DNA of 64,000 nt, taken from NCBI GenBank assembly GCA_030765135.1, contig JAVCDC010000020.1, positions 10,916 to 74,915 on the forward strand. The letters are read 5' to 3'. Source of the stretch: Candidatus Tritonobacter lacicola. GTDB lineage: Bacteria; Auribacterota; Tritonobacteria; Tritonobacterales; Tritonobacteraceae. The translations under genes were made by a program, and so were the position numbers. This document shows positions 5,379 to 36,640 of this stretch, one piece after another. Positions within the stretch are counted from its first letter, which is position 1. Every line of letters starts with the position of its first letter. The notes beneath the pieces were generated by a model that worked only from the letters and a program-made list of their open reading frames with translations, was not told where the DNA came from and did no database searches.

Positions 5379-8300
5379 CCCGCATGGACAACAACTCTAA
5401 GAAGCCACGCCCGGCGGGCAACCGCCCTTCCCCCCGGGGCGCCGCTAACGAAATCATGAACGGAAGGGGCGCCGTTCTTCACGGCATCGACATCATCAAC
5501 CCGCAGTACAGGATCGAGTACGCCAGCAGGCCAATGCTGAGGAGATACGGCGGCCTCGAGGGAAAAACCTGTTACGAGGTCTACATGAACAGGAAAAAGC
5601 CCTGCGAGAACTGCCCCGCAACAGAAGCCATAAAGACAATGAAGCCCGCGGAGATCGAGTTCGAGGGGCGGGACGGCAGGCACTATATAATCTCCGCCGC
5701 GCCGGTTAAGAACAAGGACGGGTCCGTCTCCGCCATCGAGACCATCCTCGACGTGACCGAGCGCGTCCGCCGGGAGAAAGAGCAGGAGCGATCCAAGAGC
5801 GCCCTTCAAGCCTCCGAGAAAAAATTCAAGAGCCTGATCGAAGCAAGCAGCGACTGGGTATGGGAAGTGGACCGGAACGGCATCTACACCTACGCCAGCC
5901 CGAAAGTCAAGGATTTGCTGGGGTACGAACCGGAGGAAGTCGTCGGCAGGACGCCTTTCGATCTGATGCCGACGGACGAGGCGGAGCGCATAGGCGAAAA
6001 ATTCCGGGACATCATGGCCGCCCTGAAGCCCTTTAATAGGCTAGAGAACGTGAACCTGCACAAGGACGGGCGACGCGTGGTTCTCGAGACGAGCGGCGTG
6101 CCGATACTGGACGCCGGCGGAAACCTCCTGGGATACCGGGGGATCGACCGCGATATCAGCGAGCGGAAGAAGGCCGAGGAGAAGATCGAACAGCTCTCCT
6201 TCATCGTCGAGAGTGTAAGCGAAGCCGTCATCATGACCAACACGGACAGGGATATAGTGTACGCGAACAGGGCGGCCGAGAGGATGCTCGGCTACACGGC
6301 CGAAGAGATGCTCGGCAGTAAGGCGTCCGTCTTCTTCGAAGGCGTCCCCGGCAACCCGCCCAACCTGGCCGACGACGTAGCCAGGCAGGCGAGTTTGCAG
6401 CCCTGGGAAGGCGAGATCTTCGAGAGGAGGAAGGACGGGACGGTATTCCCCATCCAACTCCGGATGGACGTTGTCAGGGACAAGATGGACAGGGTCGTCG
6501 GCTATGTGGGAGTCTCTCAGGACATCACCGAGCGAAGGAGGGCGGAAGATGAACTGAGGAAATTCAAGACAATCTCCGACAGGGCAAACTACGGCACGGC
6601 TATAACCGACCTGGAGGGCAACATCAACTATACCAACGAGGCTTTCGCGCTGATGCACGGCTATGCCCCTCGCGAGCTCATTAATAAAAATCTGGCTGAT
6701 CTGCACACCCCTGAGCAGATCAGTGACGTTAACAGGCTAAACAAGCTCCTCCTGAAAGAAGGCAGTTTTGCCGCCAGGGAGGTCTGGCACAAGAGAAAAG
6801 ACGATACAGTTTTTCCCACCCTGATGAACGCGGCAATCATACGGAATGAAGACGGCCTCCCCCTGTTCATGGCCGCAACGGCGGTCGATATTACCGAGCT
6901 CAAGCGGGCGGAAGAGGCGTCGAGGGAGAGCGAGGCCAGGTACAAAACCCTTTATGAATCTTCCAGGGACGCGATCATGATGCTGACTCCCGAAGAGGGT
7001 TTCTTCAGCGGCAACCCCGCCACCTTAAAGATGTTCGCATGTAAGGACGAGGAGGAATTCACCACCCAGACGCCTGCAGACCTCTCCCCGGAATATCAGC
7101 CGGACGGAAGCCTCTCTACGGTAAAAGCCCAACAGATGATGGCCGTGGCCATGGAGAATGGCTCCAATTTTTTCGAATGGACCCACAGGCGGCTGAACGG
7201 CGAAAATTTCTTCGCCACGGTCCTGTTGACAAGGGTGGAATTAAAGGGCAGGTCGTTCCTGCAGGCCACAGTCCGCGACATCACCGAACGAAAGCGGGTG
7301 GAAGAGGCACTGCGTACAAGCGAGGAACGCCTTCGCGTCATCATCGACACCGTTCCGGGCGTCGTTTACACAGCCCTCCCGGACGAACAAAGCACGACGA
7401 CTTTCATCTCCGCCAACATCGAGGAGATGATCGGCTACTCCCCCAAAGAGATGCTGGATGATCCAGCCCTCTGGAGCAGGCTCATCCACCCCGGGGACAG
7501 GGAGCGCTGCTGGGAGAAGATCATTGAGCATCGAATAATGAAATCGCCGCGGGAGATTGAATATCGCATGACGCACAAGGACGGCCGCGTCGTCCACGTC
7601 CTGGACCGGGCGACTCCCATCCTGGACGACGACGGAAATATCTTGATAATAGAAGGGATCATGGTGGACATATCCGAGCGAAAGAAGCTCCAGGAGAGGG
7701 TCGTCCAGGCCGACAAGCTCTCCGCAATCGGCGAGATGGTCGCGGGCGTCGCCCACGAGCTCAACAACCCCCTGGGAATCATATCGGGGCATATCCAGCT
7801 TCTCCTCGCCAGGGTAAAAGACCGGCCCACCCGCTCCAGGCTTAAAAAAATGGCTGCCCACGTCCAGCGCGGCACGACGATCATACAGAGCCTCCTCTCT
7901 TTCTCCAGGAAAGGCGAGCTCAAGCTTGTTGCCGGAAACATCAACGAGACGCTCGAGAAAGCGCTCGACAATGTCAGGAGCGAGTTTCCCGCCGGAAGGA
8001 TAGAAGTGATGAAGAACCTGGCAGAGGGGCTTCCTCCCATGAAGCTCGACCACCACCAGATGGAGATCGTCTTCACAAACATCATTAAAAACGCGTTTCA
8101 GACCCTTATCGAGGCGGAATCAAAGAAAGAGCTGCACCTCGAGAGCTTCATCAGCAACGGCACGGTCACAATCAGGATAAGAGACAACGGCCCCGGCGCG
8201 GCCCCATCTGTCCTCGCAAACCTCTTCGACCCGTTTTTCACGACGAAGAAGGTCGGCGAGGGGTCCGGCCTCGGCCTCTCCATTGCATACGGCATCGTGA

Positions 8301-8395
8301 AAAAGCACGGAGGTACAATCCATGCTGCCAGCGCCAAGGACGGCGGCCTGGAGATAATCGTGGAACTTCCCGTAAACACAGCGGGAAGAAATTAA
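5375..8395 (+). CDS. Multi-PAS sensor histidine kinase (about 5 PAS/PAC repeats, HisKA, HATPase_c) with an N-terminal Cys-containing PAS-like domain
   Basis: Overlaps the upstream stop by 4 nt (ATGA), suggesting translational coupling. Repeated PAS/PAC signatures (DITERKRAEE-type linkers). H-box HELNNPLGIISGH. G-boxes DNGPGA and GSGLGLS. Cys66, Cys77 and Cys80 (CYEVYMNRKKPCENC) sit in the first PAS-like domain. Confidence 0.85.
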   Translation: MTRMDNNSKKPRPAGNRPSPRGAANEIMNGRGAVLHGIDIINPQYRIEYASRPMLRRYGGLEGKTCYEVYMNRKKPCENCPATEAIKTMKPAEIEFEGRDGRHYIISAAPVKNKDGSVSAIETILDVTERVRREKEQERSKSALQASEKKFKSLIEASSDWVWEVDRNGIYTYASPKVKDLLGYEPEEVVGRTPFDLMPTDEAERIGEKFRDIMAALKPFNRLENVNLHKDGRRVVLETSGVPILDAGGNLLGYRGIDRDISERKKAEEKIEQLSFIVESVSEAVIMTNTDRDIVYANRAAERMLGYTAEEMLGSKASVFFEGVPGNPPNLADDVARQASLQPWEGEIFERRKDGTVFPIQLRMDVVRDKMDRVVGYVGVSQDITERRRAEDELRKFKTISDRANYGTAITDLEGNINYTNEAFALMHGYAPRELINKNLADLHTPEQISDVNRLNKLLLKEGSFAAREVWHKRKDDTVFPTLMNAAIIRNEDGLPLFMAATAVDITELKRAEEASRESEARYKTLYESSRDAIMMLTPEEGFFSGNPATLKMFACKDEEEFTTQTPADLSPEYQPDGSLSTVKAQQMMAVAMENGSNFFEWTHRRLNGENFFATVLLTRVELKGRSFLQATVRDITERKRVEEALRTSEERLRVIIDTVPGVVYTALPDEQSTTTFISANIEEMIGYSPKEMLDDPALWSRLIHPGDRERCWEKIIEHRIMKSPREIEYRMTHKDGRVVHVLDRATPILDDDGNILIIEGIMVDISERKKLQERVVQADKLSAIGEMVAGVAHELNNPLGIISGHIQLLLARVKDRPTRSRLKKMAAHVQRGTTIIQSLLSFSRKGELKLVAGNINETLEKALDNVRSEFPAGRIEVMKNLAEGLPPMKLDHHQMEIVFTNIIKNAFQTLIEAESKKELHLESFISNGTVTIRIRDNGPGAAPSVLANLFDPFFTTKKVGEGSGLGLSIAYGIVKKHGGTIHAASAKDGGLEIIVELPVNTAGRN

Positions 8396-8496
8396 AGAAA
8401 AGGGATATATGAAGCAGGTGACGTGCCTTTGCGCGGATAGCAAGTCCATGGTACTATTCCGGGTAATTCTATAAGAACAAAAGAGGGAGGGACAAA

Positions 8497-9399
8497 ATGG
8501 CCGCGAAAAGAATTCTTATAGTGGACGATGAGCCGGACGTCCTCAACGTCCTTTCACGAAACTTCACCGGCGAGGGCTACGAGGTCTCTACCGCCTCCAA
8601 CGGTCACGAGGCCATGATCAAAGCCATCGAGAGACAGCCCAATATCGTCCTCCTCGACTACATCATGCCCCTCATGGACGGCCTCGATGTCCTCGGGGAA
8701 CTGAAAAAGGAGATGCCCGAGGTGGTCGTCATCGTCATCACTGGCAGGGGATCGGAGAACGTCGCCGTGGAGGCGATGAAGACAGGGGCCAAGGATTACA
8801 TCCGGAAGCCGTTCGATATGGACAGGCTAACGGAGATGGTGGACACTTATATCGAGGAATATTACGACACGATCGTCAGGAGAAACCACGAATATGCTTA
8901 CCCCCTCGGCGACGAGGTCGTACACCGCTATGAATTTCTCCGCACCATCTACTCCTCGCCCAACCCCGATATCACGAAGCTCTCGGTGAAGTTCGGGTAT
9001 AACAGGAACTCTTTCTACAAGTTCGACCGGGAGATGAGAAAGTACGGCGTCCGGGGCATCTTCGACAAGACAAAGAAGGAGCTCGAAGAGGAACTGGGAA
9101 CGGGAGAGGAGTTCTACCCCAAGAGGGAGATACCGAGGCCGGATGCGGAGGACTCACCGGGCGAGAGGTATCCCTTCAGCCAATTCGTCAATCCCGCCGA
9201 CAAGGTCCAGATAAAGCTCGAGATGCTGAGAGAGGCCGCCACGAGCACAAAACCCCACATCGGGGAGATTACACAAAAATACGGTTTCAGCAGGCAGCTC
9301 TTCTACACGCTCCACGACAGGTTCTCCGGGTACGGCGCGCTGGGCATACTGAACAGGAAGAAGAGAAAGGGCAAAAAACGGAAAAATGGAAATATATAA
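8497..9399 (+). CDS. Response-regulator receiver-domain protein with a C-terminal region carrying two repeated HTH-like about 26-aa motifs
   Basis: Receiver domain: ILIVDDEPDVLNVL...LLDYIMPLMDG...KPFD. C-terminal repeats: ITKLSVKFGYNRNSFYKFDREMRKYG and IGEITQKYGFSRQLFYTLHDRFSGYG. Confidence 0.65.
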   Translation: MAAKRILIVDDEPDVLNVLSRNFTGEGYEVSTASNGHEAMIKAIERQPNIVLLDYIMPLMDGLDVLGELKKEMPEVVVIVITGRGSENVAVEAMKTGAKDYIRKPFDMDRLTEMVDTYIEEYYDTIVRRNHEYAYPLGDEVVHRYEFLRTIYSSPNPDITKLSVKFGYNRNSFYKFDREMRKYGVRGIFDKTKKELEEELGTGEEFYPKREIPRPDAEDSPGERYPFSQFVNPADKVQIKLEMLREAATSTKPHIGEITQKYGFSRQLFYTLHDRFSGYGALGILNRKKRKGKKRKNGNI

Positions 9400-9464
9400 A
9401 CATAAAAATATGGAATTATATTTCCATATCACCTTGCTTTCATATTTCCACTCTTAACAACCGC

Positions 9465-9493
9465 TTGACCTCCCCGTGCTCTTGCACTATATT
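9465..9493 (+). promoter_or_regulatory. Sigma-70-like promoter for the tRNA pair (TTGACC - 17 nt - TATATT)
   Basis: TTGACC at 9465-9470 and TATATT at 9488-9493 with a 17-nt spacer, about 30 nt upstream of tRNA-Phe. Confidence 0.4.
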
Positions 9494-9524
9494 TCGGTAA
9501 CATCCGGAGAATTTCGGGAAAAAC

Positions 9525-9600
9525 GCCGCGGTAGCTCAGCCGGTAGAGCAGGGGACTGAAAATCCCTGTGTCGGCGGTTCAATTCCGTCCCGCGGCACCA
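9525..9600 (+). tRNA. tRNA-Phe (anticodon GAA), 76 nt with encoded CCA
   Basis: Cloverleaf by hand: acceptor gccgcgg/ccgcggc; D-arm gctcagccggtagagc; anticodon stem gggga/tccct with loop ctGAAaa; T-arm ggcggttcaattccgtc; 3-prime end cacca. Confidence 0.9.
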
Positions 9601-9610
9601 GTTTTCCCGG

Positions 9611-9686
9611 GCCCACGTAGCTCAACCGGTAGAGCAGCTCATTCGTAATGAGCAGGTTATCAGTTCGACTCTGATCGTGGGCTCCA
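9611..9686 (+). tRNA. tRNA-Thr (anticodon CGT), 76 nt with encoded CCA
   Basis: Acceptor gcccacg/cgtgggc; D-arm gctcaaccggtagagc; anticodon stem gctca/tgagc with loop ttCGTaa; T-arm atcagttcgactctgat; discriminator t followed by cca. Confidence 0.85.
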
Positions 9687-9689
9687 CAC

Positions 9690-9729
9690 ATAGAAATGTG
9701 ATTGCCTGGAAAGGCAATCACATTTCTAT
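9690..9729. terminator. Perfect 17-bp AT-rich hairpin between tRNA-Thr and the convergent rpoN stop; probable bidirectional terminator
   Basis: atagaaatgtgattgcc (9690-9706), loop tggaaa, ggcaatcacatttctat (9713-9729). The rpoN stop codon abuts at 9729-9731. Confidence 0.45.
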
Positions 9730-11144
9730 CAGTACTGCTTCCTGAGGTTCGAGGGAAGGATCTTCAGGTTGTTCCGGTACTTCGCCACCGTCCGGCGGGC
9801 CAGCCGAATCCCCTTCCGCGCCAGAATGTCGACAATCCCCTGGTCGCTCAAGGGTTTCCTGTGGTCCTCTTTCTCTATCAGCCTCGCGATGGCATTCTTC
9901 AAGTTCCTGGATGAAACCGCCTCCCCCTCGTCGGTCATCAGGCCGGATGAGAAGAAGAACTTCAGCTCCAGCAGCCCCTGCGGGGTCTGGATGTACTTGT
10001 TGGCTATCGCCCGGCTGACGGTCGATTCGCTTATGTTCAACGAACTCGCGATATCACCCAGAGTCAGCGGGCGAAGACGTGAGATTCCATCATCGAGAAA
10101 ATCCCTCTGCTCCTGGACTATCTTTTCGGCAATGCGGTAAATCGTCTTCTGCCTCAGCGCTATGTTCTTGATAAACCACTTTCCGCCCCTCACCTTATCC
10201 TGGATATACTTCTTCGTCCCCGGGTCGAGTCGGCCGGCGGCCATCAGCCCGCGGTAGAAGCTGCTGATCCTCAAATGCGGGACCCTTTCGTCGTTGAGGA
10301 TGACATCATACCCATCGTCTGTCTTCTCCAGAAAGATGTCCGGGCTGATATAAAAAGACGGATCGCCTCCGAAGAGGCGGCCCGGCTTGGGCTCGAGGGA
10401 GGCTATGAAGTGGGCCGCCTGCTGCACCTGCGACAAAGGCCTTTTAAGGGCATGGGATATCCTCGGGTATTTCTTGCGAGCCAGCTCGTCAAGGAAATCG
10501 CGCACGATTATATGGGGCAGGGAACCCTGCTTGCCCAGGCGCATCAGCTGTATCAGGAGGCACTCCCTGAGGTCCCTCGCGCCCACGCCTACCGGATGAA
10601 AGCTCTGCACCTTTTCGAGGACTACCTGGACCTCGGACTCCGGGCAACCCGCCATGCCGGCGAGCTCTTCGACGGTGGACCTCAGGTAACCGTTGTCGTC
10701 TATATTGCCTATGATTATTTCCCCTATCATCTTTTCCTGTTCGCCAGTCGCCGTTATAGAGAGCTGGGCGAGGAGGTGGTCCTGGAGAGACTCCGGGCGG
10801 GTGATCATCGTCTCCATGAACCTCCTCTTCTCCTCGTCCTCCCGGGTGTACTTCCTGAATGACCCGCTCTGGCGGAAGTACTCCCGCCATTCGTCGTCGA
10901 GCTCGGATAAATGGGCGAACTCCTCGTCGAAATCCTTGTCCGGCGCCTCGTCGCCGTCCCCGGTCTCTCCTGCCGACTCCGTCGCCATCGTCTCCTCAAG
11001 GATAGGGTTGGCGGCCATCTCCTGGCTGACCAGCATCCTGAGGTCCATGAGGGGCATCTGCAGCATCTTGATCGCCTGCTGCATCTGTGGAGACAGTACG
11101 AGTGTCTGCGTCTGCTTGAGAATCTGTTCGAACTTAAGCGCCAT
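9729..11144 (-). CDS. rpoN: RNA polymerase sigma-54 factor
   Basis: N-terminal activator-interaction region MALKFEQILKQTQTLVLSPQMQQAIKMLQMPLMDL. Core-binding and DNA-binding regions. C-terminal RpoN box ARRTVAKYR. 471 aa. Confidence 0.92.
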   Translation of the reverse strand: MALKFEQILKQTQTLVLSPQMQQAIKMLQMPLMDLRMLVSQEMAANPILEETMATESAGETGDGDEAPDKDFDEEFAHLSELDDEWREYFRQSGSFRKYTREDEEKRRFMETMITRPESLQDHLLAQLSITATGEQEKMIGEIIIGNIDDNGYLRSTVEELAGMAGCPESEVQVVLEKVQSFHPVGVGARDLRECLLIQLMRLGKQGSLPHIIVRDFLDELARKKYPRISHALKRPLSQVQQAAHFIASLEPKPGRLFGGDPSFYISPDIFLEKTDDGYDVILNDERVPHLRISSFYRGLMAAGRLDPGTKKYIQDKVRGGKWFIKNIALRQKTIYRIAEKIVQEQRDFLDDGISRLRPLTLGDIASSLNISESTVSRAIANKYIQTPQGLLELKFFFSSGLMTDEGEAVSSRNLKNAIARLIEKEDHRKPLSDQGIVDILARKGIRLARRTVAKYRNNLKILPSNLRKQY

Positions 11145-18215: not shown

Positions 18216-18848
18216 ATGGTGCAGCTTAGAACCTATATAGTTTTGGATAGTCTACAGCTCCAGCTCGCCTCCTACGTCGCCTCATCCGCCAAGGGCTTCA
18301 TGCCCGTTTCCGGCATGGCGGCGCTTTACGTGGAGGTGGCCCCGGGGATGGAGATCAACCGCGTCATGGACGTGGCGCTCAAGTCAACGGACGTCAGGCC
18401 CGCTGTCATGCTGGTGGAGAGGGCCTACGGCCTCCTGGAGGTCCACTCGTGGGACCAGGGCGCCGTGAGGCAGGCGGGAGCCGCCATTCTCGACGCCCTG
18501 GGGTTGCAGGAATCGGACAGGCTGAAGCCGCAGGTCGTGGCCACGCAGATCATACGGAAGATCGACGCCCACCAGTCGCAGCTAATCAACAGGAACAGGA
18601 AAGGCTCCATGCTGCTTGCCGACCAGACGCTCTTCATCCTGGAGACCGACCCGGCCGGCTACGCGGTCCTGGCCGCCAACGAGGCGGAGAAGGCAGCGAA
18701 CATCACGCTCGTAGAGGTGCGCCCCTTCGGTCGGTTCGGCAGGCTGTACCTGGGCGGAGAGGAGCGCGACATCATGGTCGGCAGCGAGGCGGCGCTTGCG
18801 GCGATAGAATCGGTGAGCGGCAAGCCAGCGCCGAAAAAGGGAGAATAA
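18216..18848 (+). CDS. Tandem-BMC-domain shell protein (BMC-T)
   Basis: Two consecutive halves each resemble the core BMC fold. Half 1: [18 protein letters not shown]...[14 protein letters not shown]. Half 2: [15 protein letters not shown]...[24 protein letters not shown]. Compare the BMC-H consensus [42 protein letters not shown]. Confidence 0.65.
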
Positions 18849-18886: not shown

Positions 18887-19177
18887 ATGGCCGAAGCATT
18901 AGGCATGATAGAGACAAGAGGTTTCGCAGCAATGGTCGAGGCATCCGACGCCATGGTAAAGTCTGCCAAAGTCGAGCTCGTGAGTTACGAGAAGATCGGC
19001 GGCGGCTTTGTCACCGCGATAGTCCGCGGCGACGTCGCGGCGGTCAAGGCGGCGGTGGAAGCGGGCGCGCGCGGCGCCGAGAAGGTCGGCGAGCTGGTCA
19101 GCGTCCACGTCATACCGAGGCCGCACGTCAACGTAGACCAGGCGCTGCCGCTGGGCCGCCAGGGCAAAAGCAAATAG
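18887..19177 (+). CDS. BMC-H hexameric shell protein (PduA/EutM/CcmK family)
   Basis: [58 protein letters not shown]...VHVIPRPH is near-canonical Pfam PF00936. 96 aa. Confidence 0.93.
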
Positions 19178-19242: not shown

Positions 19243-19557
19243 ATGCTCATCGGCAAGGTCGTTGGAACCCTCGTTTCGACTCATAAAGAGGAGAAGCTCA
19301 AGGGGCTTAAGTTCTACGTTCTCCAGAAGCTTGACATGCGCGGCAAGCCCGAAGGCGGTTACGTCGTTGCCGTGGACGCCGTGGGGTCGGGAGAGGGAGA
19401 GTACGTCATCTACGCCTCGGGAAGCTCCGCCCGCTACACGCGGCAGACCGAGGGCAAACCAGCCGACGCCGCAATCACCGGCATCATCGACACATGGGAT
19501 GTGGACGGCGCCGTGCAGTACGACAAGAGCAAAGACGAGGCGCGAAAGGGACGGTAA
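19243..19557 (+). CDS. BMC-P pentameric vertex protein (EutN/CcmL/PduN family)
   Basis: MLIGKVVGTLVSTHKEEKLKGLKFYVLQ...VVAVDAVGSGEGEYV matches the PF03319 pattern. 104 aa. Confidence 0.9.
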   Translation: MLIGKVVGTLVSTHKEEKLKGLKFYVLQKLDMRGKPEGGYVVAVDAVGSGEGEYVIYASGSSARYTRQTEGKPADAAITGIIDTWDVDGAVQYDKSKDEARKGR

Positions 19558-19572
19558 CGACGGGGGAGAGAA

Positions 19573-21015
19573 ATGCAGGTTTCTGAAGAACAGGTCAAGG
19601 CCATCGTCGAAAACGTCCTCCGGAAGCTGGCGGGGGCGGATCCATCCGTGGCCGCTCCAGAGAAGGAAGAGGCACCTATTGACGCGGGCGAGGGAATAGT
19701 CGCGGACATAGACGAAGCCATGCGCCGCGCCCGGCGCGCCCACGAGGAACTCGTCGCGCAGACACTCGAGACGCGCGTCGGGATGATAGCTGCGATACGG
19801 GAGACGGTAAAGAAGAATGTCGAGCTCATCTCGAAGGCAGCCTTGGAGGAGACCGGCATGGGGCGCGTGGAGGACAAAATCAAGAAGAACCTCCTCGTCG
19901 CCAGGGCGACGCCCGGCATAGAGGACATCCCGCCCACCACCTACACCGGCGACCACGGCCTCACGCTTGTAGAGAGGGCCCCCTACGGGGTGATCGCGGC
20001 GATAACGCCATGCACCAACCCCACAGAGACCATCATCTGCAACGGCATCGGCATGATCGCGGCCGGCAACGCCGTCGTCTTCAACGTCCACCCGTCGGCC
20101 AAGGCCGTCTCGGCGATGATGGTCAAGCTGCTTAACGAGGCGATACTGGCCGCGGGAGGGCCGCGCAACCTGCTCAACTGCATCGCCAACCCGACCCAGG
20201 AGACGGCCCAGGCACTGATGAAACACACCGGCGTCGACCTGCTGGTGGTGACGGGCGGCGGGGGCGTCGTGAAGGCGGCGATGAACAGCGGCAAGAAGGT
20301 AATCGCGGCTGGTCCCGGCAACCCTCCGGTGGTCGTCGACGAGACAGCGGATATAGAGAAGGCGGGACGGGACATAGTGGCGGGAGCGTCACTCGACAAC
20401 AATATCATCTGCGTTGACGAGAAGGAGGTCATCGTGGTCGAGAGCGTCGCCGACCAGCTCAAGGCCGCGATGTGCCGCAACGGCGCACACGAGCTGACGA
20501 AGAAAGCCGACATCGACCGCCTGACGAACCTCGTGATCAAAGAGAGGAACAACCCGCCGCAAGAGAGCGTGATCAACAAGAAGTACGTGGGAAAAAATCC
20601 CAGCGTCATACTGGCTGATATCGGCATCTCCGTCGGAGACGACGTGCGGCTCGTCCTGATAGACGTGGACAGGAACCACCCTCTCGTCTGGACCGAGCAG
20701 CTCATGCCGGTCATGCCGCTGGTGAGGGTCCGGGACGTCGACGAGGGCATCGACCTCGCGCTGGAAGCCGAGCACGGCTACAGGCACACGGCCTCCATGT
20801 TCTCGCGGAACATAGAAAAGCTGAGCAAGATGGCCAGGCTCGTCAACACATCGATATTCATCAAGAACGGACCCAACTACGCCGGGCTCGGCGCCGGCGG
20901 GGAAGGGTACACTTCCTTCACCATAGCCAGCCCGACCGGGGACGGCCTGACGTCGACGAAGACATTCACGCGCTGGCGGCGCTGCACACTCGTCGATTAC
21001 TTCAGAATCGTATGA
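19573..21015 (+). CDS. CoA-acylating aldehyde dehydrogenase (EutE/PduP family) with N-terminal encapsulation-peptide-like helix
   Basis: Catalytic-region motifs ITPCTNPTETIICNGIGMIAAGNAVVFNVHPSAKA and VTGGGGVV...GPGNPPVVVDETADIEKA. N-terminal amphipathic segment QVSEEQVKAIVENVLRKLAG followed by a poorly conserved acidic linker. Confidence 0.9.
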   Translation: MQVSEEQVKAIVENVLRKLAGADPSVAAPEKEEAPIDAGEGIVADIDEAMRRARRAHEELVAQTLETRVGMIAAIRETVKKNVELISKAALEETGMGRVEDKIKKNLLVARATPGIEDIPPTTYTGDHGLTLVERAPYGVIAAITPCTNPTETIICNGIGMIAAGNAVVFNVHPSAKAVSAMMVKLLNEAILAAGGPRNLLNCIANPTQETAQALMKHTGVDLLVVTGGGGVVKAAMNSGKKVIAAGPGNPPVVVDETADIEKAGRDIVAGASLDNNIICVDEKEVIVVESVADQLKAAMCRNGAHELTKKADIDRLTNLVIKERNNPPQESVINKKYVGKNPSVILADIGISVGDDVRLVLIDVDRNHPLVWTEQLMPVMPLVRVRDVDEGIDLALEAEHGYRHTASMFSRNIEKLSKMARLVNTSIFIKNGPNYAGLGAGGEGYTSFTIASPTGDGLTSTKTFTRWRRCTLVDYFRIV

Positions 21016-21181: not shown

Positions 21182-22504
21182 ATGGACCTCGTTAGGAAGG
21201 TTTGGGAGGCGGGCGTGGTGGGCGCCGGGGGGGCAGGTTTCCCCACGTGGAAGAAGATCGACGCTCAGGTCGACACCGTAATCGCAAACGGCGCCGAATG
21301 CGAGCCACTCCTGAGGAACGACCGTAACCTCATGGCCGCCAGGGCGAAAGACGTGGTCAGGGGAATGGAGCTCGTCATCTCCTCCATGAATGCAAAGGAG
21401 GGGATCATAGGCCTGAAGAAGAAGTACGCTAAGGCCGTCGCCGCATTCAAAAACGAGCTAAAGGGCAGGGAGAACATCAGGCTCCACCTTCTTAATAGCG
21501 TATACCCCGCAGGAGACGAGTTCGTCCTCGTTTACGAGGTCACCGGCAAAGTCGTGCCCGAGCAGGGCATACCCCTGGACGTGGGAGTGGTCGTCAGCAA
21601 CGTCGAGACGTTCGCGAACATCGCGGCAGCCGCCGATAAGGGCGCAAGCGTGATCTCCCGGTTCGTGACCGTGACGGGCGCGGTGAAGGAGCCGAAAACG
21701 GTCATCGCCCCCATCGGCATGCCCCTGTCGGAGCTCATCGCCGCCGCGGGAGGGACGCACCTCGACGACTACGTCATCCTCACGGGCGGCCCAATGATGG
21801 GGACCATCGAGAACGACCCCGCAACCCCGGTGTCGAAGACGACGACCAGCATCATCATCCTGCCCCCGGACAACCCGACTGTGGTAAGGAAGACGCGGCC
21901 GCTTTCCATAGATATCAACAGAACGAAAGCCATGTGCTGCCAGTGCAACTACTGCACGATGATATGCCCCAGGGCGATGCTGGGCCACAGCCTGAAACCA
22001 CACATTATAATGAGGTCGATCAACCTCGGCCTCCCCTCTCCCGCGACAAACGTTACAATGGCCGCCCTCTGCTGCAACTGCGACCTCTGCGGCGTTTACT
22101 CCTGCCCAATGTGCCTCCCGGTCGGCAGGATCAATGTGGAAATCACCGATACCATGTCGGAAATGGGGTGGAAGCCCGCCCCGCGGACGGAGGAGCCCTC
22201 CCCCCACCCCATGAGGGAGTACAGGCTGGTGCCCGTGAGCAGGCTCACCATGAGGCTCGGACTGTCCGATTACGACCGGGACGCCCCGCTCGACAGCAGA
22301 AAGCTCAAAACCGGGAGGGTCCGCATTCCTCTCAAACAGCACATCGGCAAACCGGCGGCGCCCATCGTGAAGAAGGGCGACACGGTCAAAGCCGGCCAGC
22401 TCATCGGCGACCTCGAATGGGGGACGATGGGGGCGCGGGTGCACGCGTCTATAAACGGCGTCGTCGCTCGCGTCGACGACGAGGTAATCATAGAAGCGAG
22501 GTAA
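21182..22504 (+). CDS. PduS-like RnfC-family flavoprotein with two 4Fe-4S ferredoxin motifs (BMC-associated NADH-dependent electron-transfer protein)
   Basis: GAGGAGFPT glycine-rich loop typical of the RnfC/NuoF/PduS family. Two Cys clusters: CCQCNYCTMICP and CCNCDLCGVYSCPMC. 440 aa. Confidence 0.75.
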   Translation: MDLVRKVWEAGVVGAGGAGFPTWKKIDAQVDTVIANGAECEPLLRNDRNLMAARAKDVVRGMELVISSMNAKEGIIGLKKKYAKAVAAFKNELKGRENIRLHLLNSVYPAGDEFVLVYEVTGKVVPEQGIPLDVGVVVSNVETFANIAAAADKGASVISRFVTVTGAVKEPKTVIAPIGMPLSELIAAAGGTHLDDYVILTGGPMMGTIENDPATPVSKTTTSIIILPPDNPTVVRKTRPLSIDINRTKAMCCQCNYCTMICPRAMLGHSLKPHIIMRSINLGLPSPATNVTMAALCCNCDLCGVYSCPMCLPVGRINVEITDTMSEMGWKPAPRTEEPSPHPMREYRLVPVSRLTMRLGLSDYDRDAPLDSRKLKTGRVRIPLKQHIGKPAAPIVKKGDTVKAGQLIGDLEWGTMGARVHASINGVVARVDDEVIIEAR

Positions 22505-22521: not shown

Positions 22522-23070
22522 ATGGAACCGGCAATAGGGATTATAGAATTCAACAGTATCGCGGGGGGCATCTACGCCACGGACGCCATGGCCAAAAAGG
22601 CGCCGGTCGAGATAGTCGACTCGAAATCGATCTGCCCCGGAAAATACATGATCCTCATAACGGGCGCCGTCGCTGACGTAGACGAGTCGCTCAGGGCGGG
22701 CATCAAGGCCGGCGCGGAGACGGTGACCGACCACTTTTTCATCCCGAACGTCCACCCCCAGGTGATCCCCGCCATACTGGCCGCCACTCCTTTCGAGGAG
22801 ATGAAGGCCATCGGCGTGATCGAGACCTTCTCCGTTCCTTCCACCATAATCGCCGCAGATGCCGCAGCGAAAGCCGCGGATATTAACCTCATAGAGCTGC
22901 GGCTGGCCAACGGCCTCGGCGGGAAGAGCTACCTGACCCTCACCGGTGAACTGCACGATGTGGAGGTCGCCGTCGACGCAGGAGTCGGGGCTATAAAGGA
23001 GATAGGAGCGCTCGTCAGAAAGGTCGTGATAGCCAGGCCGAGGGTGGACCTGGCAAAGTTCCTGGCCTAG
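22522..23070 (+). CDS. PduT-like tandem-BMC shell protein (BMC-T) with conserved pore Cys38 (Fe-S cluster ligand in PduT)
   Basis: The true start is the ATG at 22522 (RBS-like gagagc upstream); the six-frame ORF track extends it spuriously back to 21934 across the PduS gene. Two BMC domains (AIGIIEFNSIAGG... and AIGVIETFSVPST...). SKSICPGKY aligns with Salmonella PduT SKTICPGKF. Confidence 0.8.
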   Translation: MEPAIGIIEFNSIAGGIYATDAMAKKAPVEIVDSKSICPGKYMILITGAVADVDESLRAGIKAGAETVTDHFFIPNVHPQVIPAILAATPFEEMKAIGVIETFSVPSTIIAADAAAKAADINLIELRLANGLGGKSYLTLTGELHDVEVAVDAGVGAIKEIGALVRKVVIARPRVDLAKFLA

Positions 23071-23841
23071 ATGAAGTCGGAGAGGGAAATAAGAAACGAC
23101 ATAGTGTCCGTCTGCCACATGATGTGGCAGAAGGGCTTCGTCGCCGCGACCGACGGAAACGTCAGCGTCAGGACCGGGAAAGACAGGATCCTCTGCACGC
23201 CCAGCGGCCTCAGCAAGGGCCTCGTTCAAGCCCGCGACCTGGTCGTGACCGACATGAGCGGGAAGAAGCTCACCGGGGAGAAGGACGTCACGAGCGAGAT
23301 CCTCTTGCACCTGGAGGTATACCGGCGGCGCGACGACGTAGCCGCCGTCGTTCACGCTCACCCGCCGATGGCGACCGCGTTTTCAATAGCCGGCGTCTCC
23401 CTCGCCCAGTGCGTCATCCCCGAGGTCGTCCTGACAATGGGCGCCATCCCGACGTCCGAATACGCGACGCCCAGCTCCGGCGAGGGGCCTTCCGCCGTGA
23501 GCGACCTGATAACACGGTGCGACGCACTCATCCTGGACCGCCACGGGTCGCTGACAGTGGGGCCTGACGTATTTTCAGCTTATCTCAAGCTCGAAAAAGT
23601 CGAGCATTGCGCCCAGGTGACGTTAGCGGCGCGGCAGCTCGGAAAAGTCAGGACCCTTTCGCCTGAGCAGGTCAACAAGCTCGTAGCCCTGCGAAGGGAC
23701 ATGGGCATCGGCGGCAAGACAATAGAGTGCAACAACTGCGGCATCTGCACAATCGAGGAGGGAGAAAAAGGTCAGAGCGACCTCATAGAAAAACTGGTGG
23801 CAGAGGCAATACAATCAATAGGGCTCGAAAAGAAGGAATAG
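23071..23841 (+). CDS. Class II aldolase/adducin-family protein (L-fuculose-/L-rhamnulose-1-phosphate aldolase-like) with a C-terminal extension of about 45 aa
   Basis: Class II aldolase core motifs (DGNVSVR, HLEVYRRRDDVAAVVHAHPP, zinc-ligand His). The start codon abuts the PduT-like stop. C-terminal tail GGKTIECNNCGICTIEEGEKGQSDLIEKLVAEAIQSIGL. Confidence 0.85.
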   Translation: MKSEREIRNDIVSVCHMMWQKGFVAATDGNVSVRTGKDRILCTPSGLSKGLVQARDLVVTDMSGKKLTGEKDVTSEILLHLEVYRRRDDVAAVVHAHPPMATAFSIAGVSLAQCVIPEVVLTMGAIPTSEYATPSSGEGPSAVSDLITRCDALILDRHGSLTVGPDVFSAYLKLEKVEHCAQVTLAARQLGKVRTLSPEQVNKLVALRRDMGIGGKTIECNNCGICTIEEGEKGQSDLIEKLVAEAIQSIGLEKKE

Positions 23842-23881: not shown

Positions 23882-24163
23882 ATGACCGAAAAGAAAAAAG
23901 GAAAAGCGGAGAACCAGAAAACCGAATATCCCGAGGTAATGACCATAGAACAGCTCTCCGGCTACCTCCAGCTTCACAAACAGGTTATTTACCGCCATAT
24001 CAGGAGCGGCAACATTCCCGTCAGCAGGATCGGCGCAACGATCCGTTTTAAGAAGTCGGTCATCGACGAGTGGCTCGAGGACTCCGCGCTCCGGAGCCTT
24101 CAAAAATCCAGGGAAGCGAAAAGAGAGGTATCCTATCCATCGTTTAATCCCGAAGAGGACTGA
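23882..24163 (+). CDS. Stand-alone excisionase/MerR-family HTH DNA-binding protein
   Basis: MTIEQLSGYLQLHKQVIYRHIRSGNIPVSRIGATIRFKKSVIDEWL matches the excisionase-family DNA-binding domain. Same domain type as the N-terminus of the 2341-2934 protein. 93 aa. Confidence 0.65.
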   Translation: MTEKKKGKAENQKTEYPEVMTIEQLSGYLQLHKQVIYRHIRSGNIPVSRIGATIRFKKSVIDEWLEDSALRSLQKSREAKREVSYPSFNPEED

Positions 24164-32918: not shown

Positions 32919-33791
32919 ATGGACATTATCGTCCTAGTAAAGCAGGTGCCCGACACGAAGGCGGTCACGGCCGACGCCATGAAGGAGGACGGGACCGTAA
33001 ACAGGGCCGCGCTCCCCGCCATATTCAACCCGGACGACCTCAACGCCCTCGAGCTCGCCCTCCAGGTGAAAGACCGGTACGGCGGGACGGTGACCGTCAT
33101 GACAATGGGGCCGCCCCGCGCCTCGGAAATCCTGAGAGAAGCTCTCTTCAGGGGGGCGGACCGGGCCGTCCTCCTGGCCGACAAGAGGTTCGCCGCGTCG
33201 GACACGCTCGCGACCTCTCTTACTCTCGCTGCCGCTATCCATAAGATTGATAAATTCAACCTCGTCGTCTGCGGAAGGCAGGCAATAGACGGCGACACAG
33301 CCCAGGTCGGCCCGCAGACAGCCGAGAAGCTGGACATACCCCAGATCACTTACGTAGATGCCGTGATCTGGATAGAGGATAAACGGATTGCCGTCAGGAG
33401 GGCCCTGGACCCCGGCTACGAGATCATCGAATCGAGCCTGCCCTGCCTCATAACGGTCATGGGGGACTGCAACTACCCGCGGACCGCCAGCGCGAAAAGG
33501 ATGATGAAGCTCAAAAAGGCCAGATCAACGGCGGAGCTGAAGAGGGAAGAGCCGGAGACGTGGGAGCCCGCGCGCGCTGCCCTCGATGAGAGGGGCCTCC
33601 TCATCGAGGAGTGGAACGCGGATTTCATCGGCCTTCCCCCGGGGGTCTGCGGCCAGGCCGGCTCGCCCACACTCGTCAAGAAGATAGAGAGCGTCGTCCT
33701 GAAGGGCGGGGATTTCAAATACATACCGCCGACGGAAGAGGGAATATCTTCGCTGATAGACGAGCTGATACGGGAGCATACTCTAGATTAA
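32919..33791 (+). CDS. etfB: Electron transfer flavoprotein beta subunit
   Basis: MDIIVLVKQVPDT...; typical EtfB N-terminus and AMP-binding region. 290 aa. Confidence 0.9.
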   Translation: MDIIVLVKQVPDTKAVTADAMKEDGTVNRAALPAIFNPDDLNALELALQVKDRYGGTVTVMTMGPPRASEILREALFRGADRAVLLADKRFAASDTLATSLTLAAAIHKIDKFNLVVCGRQAIDGDTAQVGPQTAEKLDIPQITYVDAVIWIEDKRIAVRRALDPGYEIIESSLPCLITVMGDCNYPRTASAKRMMKLKKARSTAELKREEPETWEPARAALDERGLLIEEWNADFIGLPPGVCGQAGSPTLVKKIESVVLKGGDFKYIPPTEEGISSLIDELIREHTLD

Positions 33792-33815
33792 AAAAGGTTA
33801 CAAGAATGAAAAAAA

Positions 33816-33858
33816 GACAACATTTAGTAACCCATAGTAACCGTTAGTAACTTGTAGT
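33816..33858 (+). repeat. Four tandem tagtaac(c) direct repeats at about 10-11-bp spacing in the etfB-etfA spacer
   Basis: tttagtaacccatagtaaccgttagtaacttgtagtaaccctg. A similar gtaac array lies at 25880-25930 (gtagtaaccattagtaacagatcgaagagcgtagcaacctttcgtaactg). Confidence 0.6.
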
Positions 33859-33923
33859 AACCCTGTTAAAAAGTATATGAAAAGCTTTGAGAGTGAAATG
33901 AACGGTTTTCATCGAGAGGGCAC

Positions 33924-34946
33924 GTGAGTTCCGCGAAGGACATCTGGATATTCGCCCAGCACGAGGACGGTGAGATCGCGGAGGTTTCCCTGGAGCTCCT
34001 CGGGAAAGGCAGGGAGATGGCCGACAGCCTGGGCCGGAGGCTTGCAGCAGTACTGGTGGGGCACGATGTGAAGCGCCTGGCGCGGACCCTTATCGAGCAC
34101 GGTGCGGACACCATTTACCTTGCGCAGGATCCGTCCCTCCGAGTTTACAGGACATTGCCCTACGCACGCGCAATCTGCGGCATCGCCCGCGACATGAAGC
34201 CAGAGATATTCCTCTTCGGCGCCACCCCCGTGGGCCGGGATCTCGCTCCCAGGGTAGCGTCGTCCCTCCGCTGCGGCCTCACGGCCGACTGCACCGACCT
34301 CCGGATAGGCGATTACACCTCGCCGAAAAAGAAGAAGTACGAGGACCTCCTCCTCCAGGTAAGGCCCGCTTTCGGCGGGAACATCATAGCGACGATAGTA
34401 AACCCCGAGACGCGCCCGCAGATGGCCACCGTCCGCGAGGGCGTCATGGCCGCACTGGAAGGAGACTCCGGCAGGGAAGGGGAGGTCATCGAAGTCCCCG
34501 CACGAATAGAGGAGGGCGACCTCGCTGTGGAGGTCATGGCGAGGAAGGCGGGGAAGAGAACGGTGAACCTGAGGAAGGCCAAGGTCATCGTCTCCGGCGG
34601 GGTAGGCCTTGGGAGCAAAGAGAACTTCGACCTCATATTCAAGCTGGCGGAGGCGCTGGGTGGGCATGTCGGCGCGTCGAGGTCCGCGGTAGACAGCGGC
34701 TTCATCGACAAGGAGCACCAGGTGGGACAAACCGGTACGACTGTGCGCCCGAAGCTCTACATCGCCTGCGGCATTTCCGGCGCCGTCCAGCACAGGGCCG
34801 GGATGAGCGAGTCCATGAAGATCATAGCCATCAACTCCGACCCGGAGGCTCCCATATTCGGCGTGGCGCACTACGGCATCATCGGCAACCTCCACGAGGT
34901 CATCCCCAAAATTATCAAAACCTATTTTTTTCGGAGAAAAAAATAG
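33924..34946 (+). CDS. etfA: Electron transfer flavoprotein alpha subunit
   Basis: GTG start. Matches the EtfA FAD-binding C-terminal domain (IVSGGVGLGSKENF...LYIACGISGAVQH). Confidence 0.9.
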   Translation: MSSAKDIWIFAQHEDGEIAEVSLELLGKGREMADSLGRRLAAVLVGHDVKRLARTLIEHGADTIYLAQDPSLRVYRTLPYARAICGIARDMKPEIFLFGATPVGRDLAPRVASSLRCGLTADCTDLRIGDYTSPKKKKYEDLLLQVRPAFGGNIIATIVNPETRPQMATVREGVMAALEGDSGREGEVIEVPARIEEGDLAVEVMARKAGKRTVNLRKAKVIVSGGVGLGSKENFDLIFKLAEALGGHVGASRSAVDSGFIDKEHQVGQTGTTVRPKLYIACGISGAVQHRAGMSESMKIIAINSDPEAPIFGVAHYGIIGNLHEVIPKIIKTYFFRRKK

Positions 34947-36640
34947 TGAGGAACTTCTTCGAGGACAACGAGGACCTTATATTCTGCTTCGAAAGCGACG
35001 GCCTCGAGCGCCTTGCCGGGCTCCAGGAAAAGGGCTTCGGGGAGCGCGGGGCATTCGACTACGCCCCGGCAGACGCGGCCGACGCCATCGACAGCTACAG
35101 GCGGACTCTCTCCATCCTCGGCGAGCTGGCGGCCGAGTTCATCGAGCCGCGGAGCGCGCAGGTCGACCAGGACGGCAGCGTCCTCGCCGGCGGCGAGGTC
35201 CGCTACGCCACTGGAATAAGCGAGTCGCTCGACATGCTCTCGAAGGCGGACCTCATGGGCTTCACCCTCCCGCGCCGCTACGGCGGCCTGAACCTCCCGA
35301 CGATCGTCTACGCGATGGCCATCGAGATAGTCGCCCGGGCCGACGCGAGCCTGATGAACATATTCGGCCTCCAGTCGATAGCCGAGACCATAAACGATTA
35401 CGCATCAGACAAGATCAAGGAGAAGTACCTCCCACTCTTCGCCTCCGGGGAGGTCACCGGGGCCATGGCCCTGACCGAGCCCGACGCGGGAAGCGACCTC
35501 CAATCGGTAAGGCTGAAGGCCGTCCCGGGAGACGACGGGATGTGGAGGCTGAGCGGCGTGAAGCGGTTCATCACCAACGGCGGCGGTGACGTGCTCCTCG
35601 TCCTCGCACGGTCGGAGGAGGATGCGGGGGGTCTCGGCCTGAGCCTCTTCCTCTGCGAGCGGAAGGCCGGGGTCAAGGTCAGGCGGCTTGAGGAGAAGCT
35701 GGGCATCCACGGCTCTCCCACATGCGAGCTTGAGTTCAACGACGTCCCGGCCCTCCTCATCGGCGAGAGACGGAGGGGCCTCGTCACCTACGTCATGTCG
35801 ATGATGAACGGCGCCAGGCTGGCAATAGCCGCCCAGTCGATCGGCATAGCGCAGGCAGCCTACAACGAGGCGCGGACTTACGCATTCACTAGAGCACAGT
35901 TCGGGGAAAGAATAGAGAAGCTGCCCCCCGTCGCCGACATGCTCCTGGACATGCGGATGAAGATAGAGGGCGCCCGCGCACTGACATGCAAAACGGCCGA
36001 AGTGGTCGACACAGTCAGGGGCCTCTCCGCAGGGAGAGACACGCCCAGAAAAGAGATTCGCCGGCTCGAGAGGCTGGCAGGCATGCTCACACCCCTCAGC
36101 AAGTACTACGCCTCGGAGATGTGCATCGAGGTGACCTCAGACGCGGTGCAGGTACTCGGGGGGAGCGGCTACATGAGGGACTACCCGGTGGAGCGTCACC
36201 TGAGGGACGCGAGGATAACGAACATTTACGAGGGTACATCCCAGCTGCAGGTCCTCGCCGCCGTGAGGAGTGTCACCAGCGGCCTCGCCGGGAAGCTCTT
36301 CCTCGAACTGGAATCGGAGGAATACGACCGCCGCCTGGCGGGGAAGCTCTCGGAGGCGCGGGGGCTTCTTGAGGAAACCGCGGCCCACGTCAAGGAGAGC
36401 GAAGGGAGCGCCTACGTCGATCTGTACGCCCGGCACCTTGTCGACATGGCGACCGGAATAACGATAGGCTACCTTTTCCTGGAGCAGGCAAAACGCTCGG
36501 GGAGAAAGCTCCTCATGGCCCGGCGATTCATCACCAGGCTGCTCCCCGTAGTCCGCATGAAGGCCGAACAGGTGAAGAGCGGGGAGAGATCGGCGCTCAC
36601 GGACTTCGATGAGCTGGCGGGGCCGGTTTCGCAGAGCTAG
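34946..36640 (+). CDS. Acyl-CoA dehydrogenase (long, 564 aa) forming an etfBA-acd unit
   Basis: GTG start overlapping the etfA stop by 1 nt. ACAD motifs (GAMALTEPDAGSD, RFITNGG, YEGTSQLQ). Confidence 0.88.
   Translation: MRNFFEDNEDLIFCFESDGLERLAGLQEKGFGERGAFDYAPADAADAIDSYRRTLSILGELAAEFIEPRSAQVDQDGSVLAGGEVRYATGISESLDMLSKADLMGFTLPRRYGGLNLPTIVYAMAIEIVARADASLMNIFGLQSIAETINDYASDKIKEKYLPLFASGEVTGAMALTEPDAGSDLQSVRLKAVPGDDGMWRLSGVKRFITNGGGDVLLVLARSEEDAGGLGLSLFLCERKAGVKVRRLEEKLGIHGSPTCELEFNDVPALLIGERRRGLVTYVMSMMNGARLAIAAQSIGIAQAAYNEARTYAFTRAQFGERIEKLPPVADMLLDMRMKIEGARALTCKTAEVVDTVRGLSAGRDTPRKEIRRLERLAGMLTPLSKYYASEMCIEVTSDAVQVLGGSGYMRDYPVERHLRDARITNIYEGTSQLQVLAAVRSVTSGLAGKLFLELESEEYDRRLAGKLSEARGLLEETAAHVKESEGSAYVDLYARHLVDMATGITIGYLFLEQAKRSGRKLLMARRFITRLLPVVRMKAEQVKSGERSALTDFDELAGPVSQS

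Follow-up and report, generated by a model that had tools for sequence, protein, structure and literature searches.

The stretch of DNA analysed here, hereafter the window, comprises 64,000 nucleotides of Candidatus Tritonobacter lacicola (contig JAVCDC010000020.1, positions 10,916 to 74,915) and carries a seven-gene bacterial microcompartment (BMC) operon in the order BMC-Tdp, BMC-H, BMC-P, acylating aldehyde dehydrogenase (AldDh), MNdh/PduS, BMC-T^SE/PduT and aldolase. We focus on the last gene of this operon, that of a class II aldolase (23071..23841, + strand; 256 amino acids plus stop), and on the C-terminal tail of its product. The ATG of the gene (23071) directly abuts the TAG stop codon of the BMC-T^SE gene, and the protein is an exact match to MDP8246873.1 of Candidatus Tritonobacter lacicola (Ca. 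Auribacterota). The catalytic core comprises residues 1–211 (23071..23703, +). The tail, the last 45 residues, reads G212-IGGKTIE-C220-NN-C223-GI-C226-TIEEGEKGQS-D237LIEKLVAEAIQSIGL252-EKKE and is identical to the sequence quoted in the first-pass annotation, whose start at 23695 falls on the codon of Arg209. All parts of the tail lie on the + strand. A spacer leads from the core to the first cysteine (Gly212–Glu219, 23704..23727; 7–13 residues in the family) and is followed by the conserved cysteine triad Cys220-Asn-Asn-Cys223-Gly-Ile-Cys226 (23728..23748, with TGC codons at 23728–30, 23737–39 and 23746–48), a variable acidic linker of ten residues (Thr227–Ser236, 23749..23778) and an amphipathic helix (Asp237–Leu252, 23779..23826), which is the predicted encapsulation peptide. 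A fourth cysteine of the core, Cys114 (codon 23410..23412, +), lies in the loop before the invariant Pro117–Glu118 and is the candidate fourth ligand.

The core has the FucA fold. PF00596 covers residues 10–184 (E value of 5.9e-45; 153.9 bits against a curated Pfam cut-off of 22.2), and Foldseek matches the protein to EcFucA, YgbL and DrdA with TM-scores (target) of 0.85–0.90 over ~208 columns. The three histidine metal ligands and the catalytic glutamate of EcFucA (His92, His94, His155 and Glu73; active-site roles from PMC11841055) correspond to His95, His97, His158 and Glu76, which are invariant in the family, and the phosphate-site residues Asn30, Ser45, Gly46, Thr74 and Ser75 are present. 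The loop of residues 108–120 (GVSLAQCVIPEVV; 23392–23430) contains no tyrosine, so the catalytic Tyr113' of EcFucA is not conserved, with the reservation that the loop alignment is ambiguous; in its place, the family has an invariant C-[VIL]-[IL]-P-E, which supplies Cys114 and Pro117–Glu118. All NCBIfam equivalogs remain below their cut-offs, the best being the L-ribulose-5-phosphate 4-epimerase subfamily (115 bits versus 251) and the OtnC decarboxylase (112 versus 250). Because of these sub-cut-off matches and the non-conserved Tyr113', the name 'fuculose-phosphate aldolase' is not established by the sequence comparisons, and superfamily membership alone holds. Among proteins of solved structure, the core is closest in sequence to DrdA (PDB 6btd/6btg; E value of 2.1e-20), a Bacillus thuringiensis enzyme that acts as 5-deoxyribulose-1-phosphate aldolase and is also among the top structural matches, with ~25% identity in the structural alignment. 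This relationship, together with the non-conserved Tyr113' and the sub-cut-off NCBIfam matches, suggests that the substrate may be other than fuculose or rhamnulose phosphate. DrdA releases acetaldehyde and dihydroxyacetone phosphate, which would suit the EutE-like AldDh of the window operon; it differs from the window aldolase in having neither a tail nor a BMC association.

The core end at about residue 205, as proposed in the first-pass annotation, is borne out by the solved FucA-type proteins, which align with the aldolase by sequence only that far. These proteins end within ~15 residues of the core, and the long extension is absent outside BMC loci. The C-terminal helix has clear precedents, as C-terminal encapsulation peptides have been described for BMC class II aldolases of the PVM, PVM-like, GRM5, ACI and SPU5 types (PMC4594438, PMC8217296, PMC11585597). 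The window aldolase has in common with them the PF00596 family, the placement of its gene within a BMC locus and, at the same terminus, an amphipathic helix of ~16 residues that follows a linker. The AlphaFold2 (AF2) monomer model has a helix over residues 225–255, with a predicted local distance difference test score (pLDDT) of 79 for residues 241–250 and of 56–59 for the linker. The best 14-mer of the helix, DLIEKLVAEAIQSI, has a hydrophobic moment of 1.93, compared with a family median of 1.96, and the aligned family consensus is D-x-x-L-V-x-x-V-x-x-x-V-x-x-E-L. Tested as an 18-mer, the window helix shows no significant amphipathicity, with 12% of shuffles reaching the observed value; therefore, the helix assignment rests on family conservation and not on the window sequence by itself. 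The candidate encapsulation peptide suggested in the first-pass annotation is thus supported by the AF2 helix, the family pattern and the literature, although the predicted peptide is of an already known kind and is an ordinary part of such a tail. The difference lies in the segment before it. PMC4594438 describes the aldolase linker as lacking sequence conservation, while its table lists, without comment, 5.5% cysteine for aldolase linkers, the highest of any linker class. In the window family, the start of this linker is a conserved CxxCGxCG that is coupled to a cysteine of the core.

The cysteine triad is more than a chance occurrence. Among the 47 predicted proteins of the window (18,009 amino acids, 1.06% Cys), CxxCxxC is confined to the aldolase tail and to MNdh, where it forms part of the two ferredoxin motifs, and ~3e-4 chance occurrences are expected per 256 amino acids. 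A search for homologs gave 2277 proteins at an E value of 1e-10 or below, and the best 120 plus the window protein (121 sequences) were used for the tail counts. The tail CxxCxxC is present in 107 of the 121, with a glycine after the second cysteine in 99 of these 107 and after the third in 79, so the three residues prove to be conserved among orthologs. The consensus is [GP]-G-C-[VS]-[NQH]-C-G-[AT]-C-G-[RK], and the linker that follows is hypervariable. In an alignment of 87 sequences at 50–95% identity, the three tail cysteines and Cys114 are invariant. No conserved His, Asp or Cys occurs from −6 to +11 around the triad, which leaves no conserved fourth ligand within the tail. The first-pass annotation had stated that a triad of this kind is not a standard feature of aldolase-type BMCs. 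This is wrong: it is the commonest pattern in the closest 120 homologs. It is also found in 25 of 148 proteins of a wider sample (the best 150 of 10,144 matches, taken as representatives of 50%-identity clusters, of which 148 cover the core end). In that sample, 62 proteins have no tail cysteine (FucA-like, with a median tail of nine residues) and 61 have other patterns with one to four or more. The triad is apparently unreported; we found no description of the motif in the open-access literature searched (including PMC8217296, PMC4594438, PMC12747264, PMC11626177, PMC6325248 and PMC11585597), and an earlier mention elsewhere is possible.

The distribution of the tail cysteines follows the BMC context. 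In a comparison of 80 species-level genome loci (L numbers below denote genome loci), in which shell genes were scored within ±10 kb, the triad occurs in 16. Shell genes are found at none of the six loci whose aldolase lacks tail cysteines and at 57 of the 74 loci with a tail cysteine. Tail-less homologs thus have neither tail cysteines nor nearby shell genes, and the triad is restricted to homologs with long C-terminal tails, most but not all of which have shell genes in the DNA fetched. Of 196 tails that resemble encapsulation peptides, 185 have a cysteine at tail positions 4–18 (the anchor cysteine). Mapped on a neighbour-joining tree, the triad occupies one large clade together with several deep branches and undergoes ~10 state changes. 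In every cysteine class, the first cysteine lies 7–13 residues past the core end, whereas between 1 and 26 residues separate the triad from the helix; on this spacing, the cysteine element is best assigned to the catalytic domain and not to the targeting helix. Two variant groups were seen alongside. The ACI-type aldolases (L019–L077, Vicinamibacterales/Acidobacteriota) have Ala114 and a different, conserved two-cysteine pattern of variable spacing, A-P-A-P-I-C ... C-Q-V-V-x-A-P, which is followed by the encapsulation peptide E-I-R-L-T-Y-x-E-L-x-x-L-I-E-D-A-V. The aldolases of L029, L031 and L064 (Phycisphaerae) stand in complete BMC loci and have tails of 19–29 residues with one cysteine and no obvious amphipathic helix; the BMC-T^S pores of these loci lack a cysteine.

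The position of Cys114 can be read against the known active sites of this fold. In EcFucA, the loop of Tyr113', the counterpart of the Cys114 loop, is contributed to the active site of the neighbouring subunit (PMC11841055), and the C-terminal tail with Tyr209 is placed at the same inter-subunit site (PMC5434028). The mobile tails of E. coli FucA (EcFucA, Tyr209) and AraD (Tyr229) are C-terminal segments of the same fold that work at an inter-subunit active site. By eye, in an ungapped comparison, Met211 of the window protein stands opposite Tyr209 of EcFucA, and MAFFT places it opposite a gap just after residue 209. FucA ends six residues past the Tyr209 position, with no cysteine, linker or helix, whereas the window tail continues into the triad.

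We scanned every core column for residues present in at least 85% of the triad proteins and at most 35% of the proteins without tail cysteines. The only column separating the two groups is that of Cys114, which is a cysteine in 94% of the triad proteins, 50% of those with other cysteine patterns and 8% of the Cys-less proteins. On a tree built without column 114, Cys114 and the anchor cysteine of the tail change together on 17 branches, 16 of them in the same direction; 4.6 such branches are expected, and none of 5000 permutations reaches 17. The eight genuine Cys-less tails that bear a peptide all lack Cys114. Exceptions in the other direction appear to be compensated, as a fourth tail cysteine is present in six of the nine triad proteins without Cys114 and in seven of the 138 with it (Fisher p = 1e-5). 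One further exception among the triad proteins without Cys114 has Asp114. The total number of cysteines, counting Cys114 and those of the tail, peaks at 2 and 4.

The best reading of the tail, which we hold to be probable though by no means secure, is a putative four-cysteine metal site of Cys114, Cys220, Cys223 and Cys226 that latches the tail to the core. The cysteine knuckle at a fixed short distance past the catalytic domain would combine with Cys114 of the core to bind a metal, either as a cluster of the [4Fe-4S] type or as a Zn/Fe(Cys)4 centre. The site would fasten the beginning of the tail to the loop that extends, in FucA-type enzymes, into the active site of the neighbouring subunit. 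The variable and acidic linker would then act as a flexible connection to the terminal helix, which as an encapsulation peptide would bring the aldolase tetramer into the BMC lumen, beside AldDh with its own N-terminal peptide; this last role is taken by analogy from the literature on the family. We infer that the site binds a metal and acts as a structural or regulatory latch at the lid of the active site. The possible metal site raised in the first-pass annotation is thus a putative one, supported by the conservation of the triad, the covariation with Cys114 and the compensating fourth cysteine.

An iron–sulfur cluster is slightly favoured over zinc, because the consensus is like one half of a ferredoxin motif and because most triad lineages, the host included, are anaerobes. 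The ferredoxin motif is CxxCGxCxxxCP, and the triad consensus C-V-x-C-G-A-C resembles its first three cysteines. The tail shares with the ferredoxin-type [4Fe-4S] motif CxxCxxCxxxCP (in the window MNdh, CCQCNYCTMICP) the spacing of the three cysteines, with a glycine following the second and a residue of small or aliphatic type following the first. In contrast to this motif, the tail has no fourth Cys-Pro, no second motif and no significant Fer4 match (best Fer4_2, E value of 0.19, in one homolog), and its likely fourth ligand, Cys114, is found ~106 residues upstream in the catalytic domain. A second precedent, which speaks for zinc, is the structural zinc site of medium-chain alcohol dehydrogenases, Cx2Cx2Cx7C, in which a contiguous CxxCxxC likewise supplies three thiolates, out of four, for a single structural metal located on a surface lobe. 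There, the fourth cysteine lies seven residues downstream, in an unrelated fold; among the aldolases, a few variants also carry a downstream fourth cysteine.

Several observations weigh against the four-cysteine latch. The aldolases of Neomoorella (L009 and L010), a cultivated genus, combine the triad with Pro114 and have no fourth tail cysteine, which makes these two the only unexplained exceptions to the four-cysteine pattern. Cys114 also occurs in ten sequences without the anchor cysteine and in about half of the proteins with other cysteine patterns. Many of the co-changes are joint losses on terminal branches, which could reflect departure from the BMC context and not direct contact, and the tree on which they were counted is a rough neighbour-joining tree. 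In the AF2 model, residues 211–240 have low confidence (pLDDT of 56–68) and form no folded knuckle. A Pfam scan of the tail alone (eight diverse tails, E values up to 10) gave no significant match, the best being Rubredoxin (0.022) and Fer4_2 (0.19); the scan also returned coiled-coil and LisH noise and no family assignment. Searches by PDB sequence and by Foldseek found no solved relative that covers the tail. The four cysteines could also form two disulfides. Lastly, the encapsulation role of aldolase tails is mostly bioinformatic in the cited BMC literature.

The latch might also be a redox device. In the SPU-type clade of BMC aldolases, a redox-active [4Fe-4S] cluster, liganded by the tail CxxCxxC together with Cys114 right next to the inter-subunit active site, could serve as a redox or oxygen gate on the activity or on the release of the tail, according to the lumenal redox state set through the MNdh/BMC-T^SE conduit. 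We regard this extension as rather doubtful; if it is true, it would be the first case of an Fe–S centre on a BMC signature enzyme whose own reaction is not a redox one.

The conduit in question is encoded directly upstream of the aldolase. The MNdh/PduS-like NADH dehydrogenase is a flavo-Fe–S protein (21182..22504, +) with the domains Complex1_51K, SLBB, Fer4_17 and RnfC_N, and BMC-T^SE, a PduT-like tandem BMC protein (22522..23070, +), has the pore motif S-I-C-P-G-K-Y. The window thus carries the full MNdh domain set adjoining a BMC-T^S whose pore has CP(G/S)K, which is the module and the motif defined in PMC11626177. This pair of MNdh (PduS) and BMC-T^SE (PduT) serves electron export (PMC11626177), and it illustrates that BMCs employ Fe–S centres within their shells and across them; in the window, both the C-P-G-K of the pore and the MNdh domains are intact. 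It is, however, a shell/oxidoreductase pair and not a cargo tail, and the two elements occur separately, with the triad but no module in L082 and the module but no triad in L079.

The neighbourhood suggests an alternative in which the triad relays electrons. In this model, the three cysteines would bind a cluster on a flexible tether, either [4Fe-4S] with an open site or [3Fe-4S], that exchanges electrons with MNdh/BMC-T^SE or supplies the fourth ligand of the pore cluster. The likeness of C-V-x-C-G-A-C to the first three cysteines of the ferredoxin motif would fit, as would the C-P-G-K pore motif of the window BMC-T^SE and the conserved gene order, which has T^S as the upstream neighbour, its stop codon adjoining the aldolase ATG in the window. 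The fourth ligand of the PduT cluster is moreover unknown (PMC6325248). The module is enriched at triad loci, with MNdh at eight of 16 compared with seven of the 64 others; this figure is confounded by phylogeny, as the ACI clade makes up 27 of the non-triad loci. A strict dependence of the triad on MNdh/BMC-T^SE is rejected on three grounds: L082, triad loci that lack MNdh, and loci with MNdh but no triad. L082 lacks MNdh, and the pore of its BMC-T^S (8756–9343) has TVQKGRY without a cysteine, yet the adjacent aldolase keeps CSQCGTCG. L004, L007 and L015 are triad loci without MNdh within 10 kb, and, conversely, L036, L057, L078 and L079 have MNdh/BMC-T^SE but no or one cysteine in the aldolase tail. 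The link to a PduT-type Fe–S pore that was implied in the first-pass annotation thus stands as an enrichment, but it is not obligatory. The triad is furthermore anchored to the core and not to the shell-binding helix, the covariation and compensation favour an internal fourth ligand, and the aldolase reaction is not redox chemistry. Because the association is not obligatory, an electron-relay role is a minority hypothesis, and we consider it improbable.

The even-numbered peaks of the cysteine count would also be expected if the cysteines were metal-free, and reversible disulfides, between Cys114 and the tail or between chains, stapled the tail or cross-linked the cargo according to the redox state. 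Redox disulfide cross-linking has been proposed for some carboxysome scaffold proteins. The covariation of Cys114 with the anchor cysteine fits such pairs as well, and many lineages have only Cys114 and one tail cysteine, or two tail cysteines as in the ACI type. However, the host and most triad lineages, Anaerolineae and Neomoorella among them, are anaerobes with a reducing cytoplasm. The strict CxxCGxCG with its conserved glycines is typical of metal knuckles and not of disulfide pairs, and adjacent CxxC pairs would make local disulfides for which Cys114 is not needed. We therefore give a thiol/disulfide function of the tail little likelihood.

A third alternative starts from the active site itself. 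The tail cysteines might ligate the catalytic metal held by the three histidines and keep the enzyme inactive until encapsulation pulls the tail away. The geometry of EcFucA is compatible with this idea, as its Tyr209 tail is modelled in the active site between two subunits, to which the neighbour adds the Tyr113' loop (PMC5434028, PMC11841055), and the first cysteine of the window tail lies ~9 residues beyond the Tyr209 equivalent. The three-histidine metal, however, has room for one or two more ligands at most, and such autoinhibition would leave unexplained both the three cysteines of fixed spacing with Cys114 and the fourth tail cysteine that compensates for the loss of Cys114; we judge it highly improbable. 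That the cysteine-rich stretch is a lineage-specific quirk of a disordered linker without specific function is extremely improbable, since, against the description of the aldolase linker as unconserved (PMC4594438) and the low AF2 confidence in the tail, the three cysteines are invariant at 50–95% identity amid varying neighbours, occur in deep-branching lineages and covary with a core residue.

The remaining genes of the operon place the aldolase in a reduced BMC locus. The shell genes are BMC-Tdp, which is CcmP-like (18216–18848, +), BMC-H (18887–19177, +) and BMC-P (19243–19557, +), and no further shell genes were found in the whole window. They are followed by the EutE-like acylating AldDh (19573..21015, +), which has an N-terminal encapsulation peptide, MQVSEEQVKAIVENVLRKL. 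The hydrophobic pattern of this peptide (19573–19632, EEQVKAIVENVLRKL) resembles that of the C-terminal helix of the aldolase. Immediately downstream of the aldolase lies an HTH_17 gene (excisionase/MerR-like; 23882..24163, +), which is kept in the same position in L084 (10767–11057) and L085 (10831–11247), whose aldolases are 56% identical to that of the window; it may regulate the reduced BMC locus.

The genes of the closest relatives of the aldolase close loci of the SPU (sugar-phosphate utilisation) type at their 3' end, in the order RpiB-DeoC-Tdp-H-P-AldDh-MNdh-(bAvd-like)-Ts-P-P-aldolase (L081 and L086). The window has the order Tdp-H-P-AldDh-MNdh-Ts-(P-P)-aldolase in common with L081, L086, L003 and L008, apart from the two bracketed BMC-P genes, which are missing from it and from L083 and L084, and the gene order is conserved in L081–L086. 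The bAvd-like gene, a ~150-residue 23S_rRNA_IVP/bAvd-like four-helix bundle between MNdh and BMC-T^S (8172–8639 in L081 and 8157–8606 in L086), is absent from the window. As to SPU membership, DERA (PF01791) and an RpiB-type isomerase (PF02502) are present in the syntenic L081, L082 and L086, with an RPI–DERA fusion in L082, and were not found beside the window operon. No DERA, RPI or PTAC was detected among the open reading frames scanned (~5–17.9 kb and most, not all, of 24–46 kb). A reduced make-up, with neither DERA nor RPI, a single BMC-P in place of three and the HTH_17 gene after the aldolase, is seen in L083 (96% identity) and L084 (56% identity) as well as in the window. Because the window operon is trimmed of the DERA and RpiB genes, the class II aldolase is the only candidate signature enzyme left in it. 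Ca. Tritonobacter lacicola comes from the anoxic zone of Ace Lake and is inferred to be an anaerobic fermenter, with a BMC predicted for the degradation of DNA and deoxyribose; the prediction cites a deoxyribose-phosphate aldolase without stating the place of its gene (PMC9324843). Farther from the operon, an ETF beta/alpha pair and a long acyl-CoA dehydrogenase form a cluster at 32919–36640 (+), ~9 kb downstream, and a multi-PAS histidine kinase, an HTH response regulator and rpoN (sigma-54) lie upstream (5375–11144). The sigma-54 promoter consensus has no match anywhere in the window.

For BMC cargo, encapsulation tails are regarded as consisting of a helix and a disordered linker, and it is in this form that engineering copies them. 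In this aldolase clade, found in a BMC type (the SPU-type loci) that is among the most widespread, the initial part of the tail seems instead to be a conserved site of four cysteines that is tied to the catalytic domain. If the site is a structural zinc alone, this would be a modest refinement of annotation. If a metal is bound, the tail would hold a new BMC cofactor site, possibly redox-sensitive, in an organelle that exports electrons via Fe–S centres, and anaerobic or metal-supplemented conditions would be required when these aldolases are expressed heterologously or assayed for activity. A bound metal would also offer a handle on a possible coupling between the activity of the cargo and its packaging.

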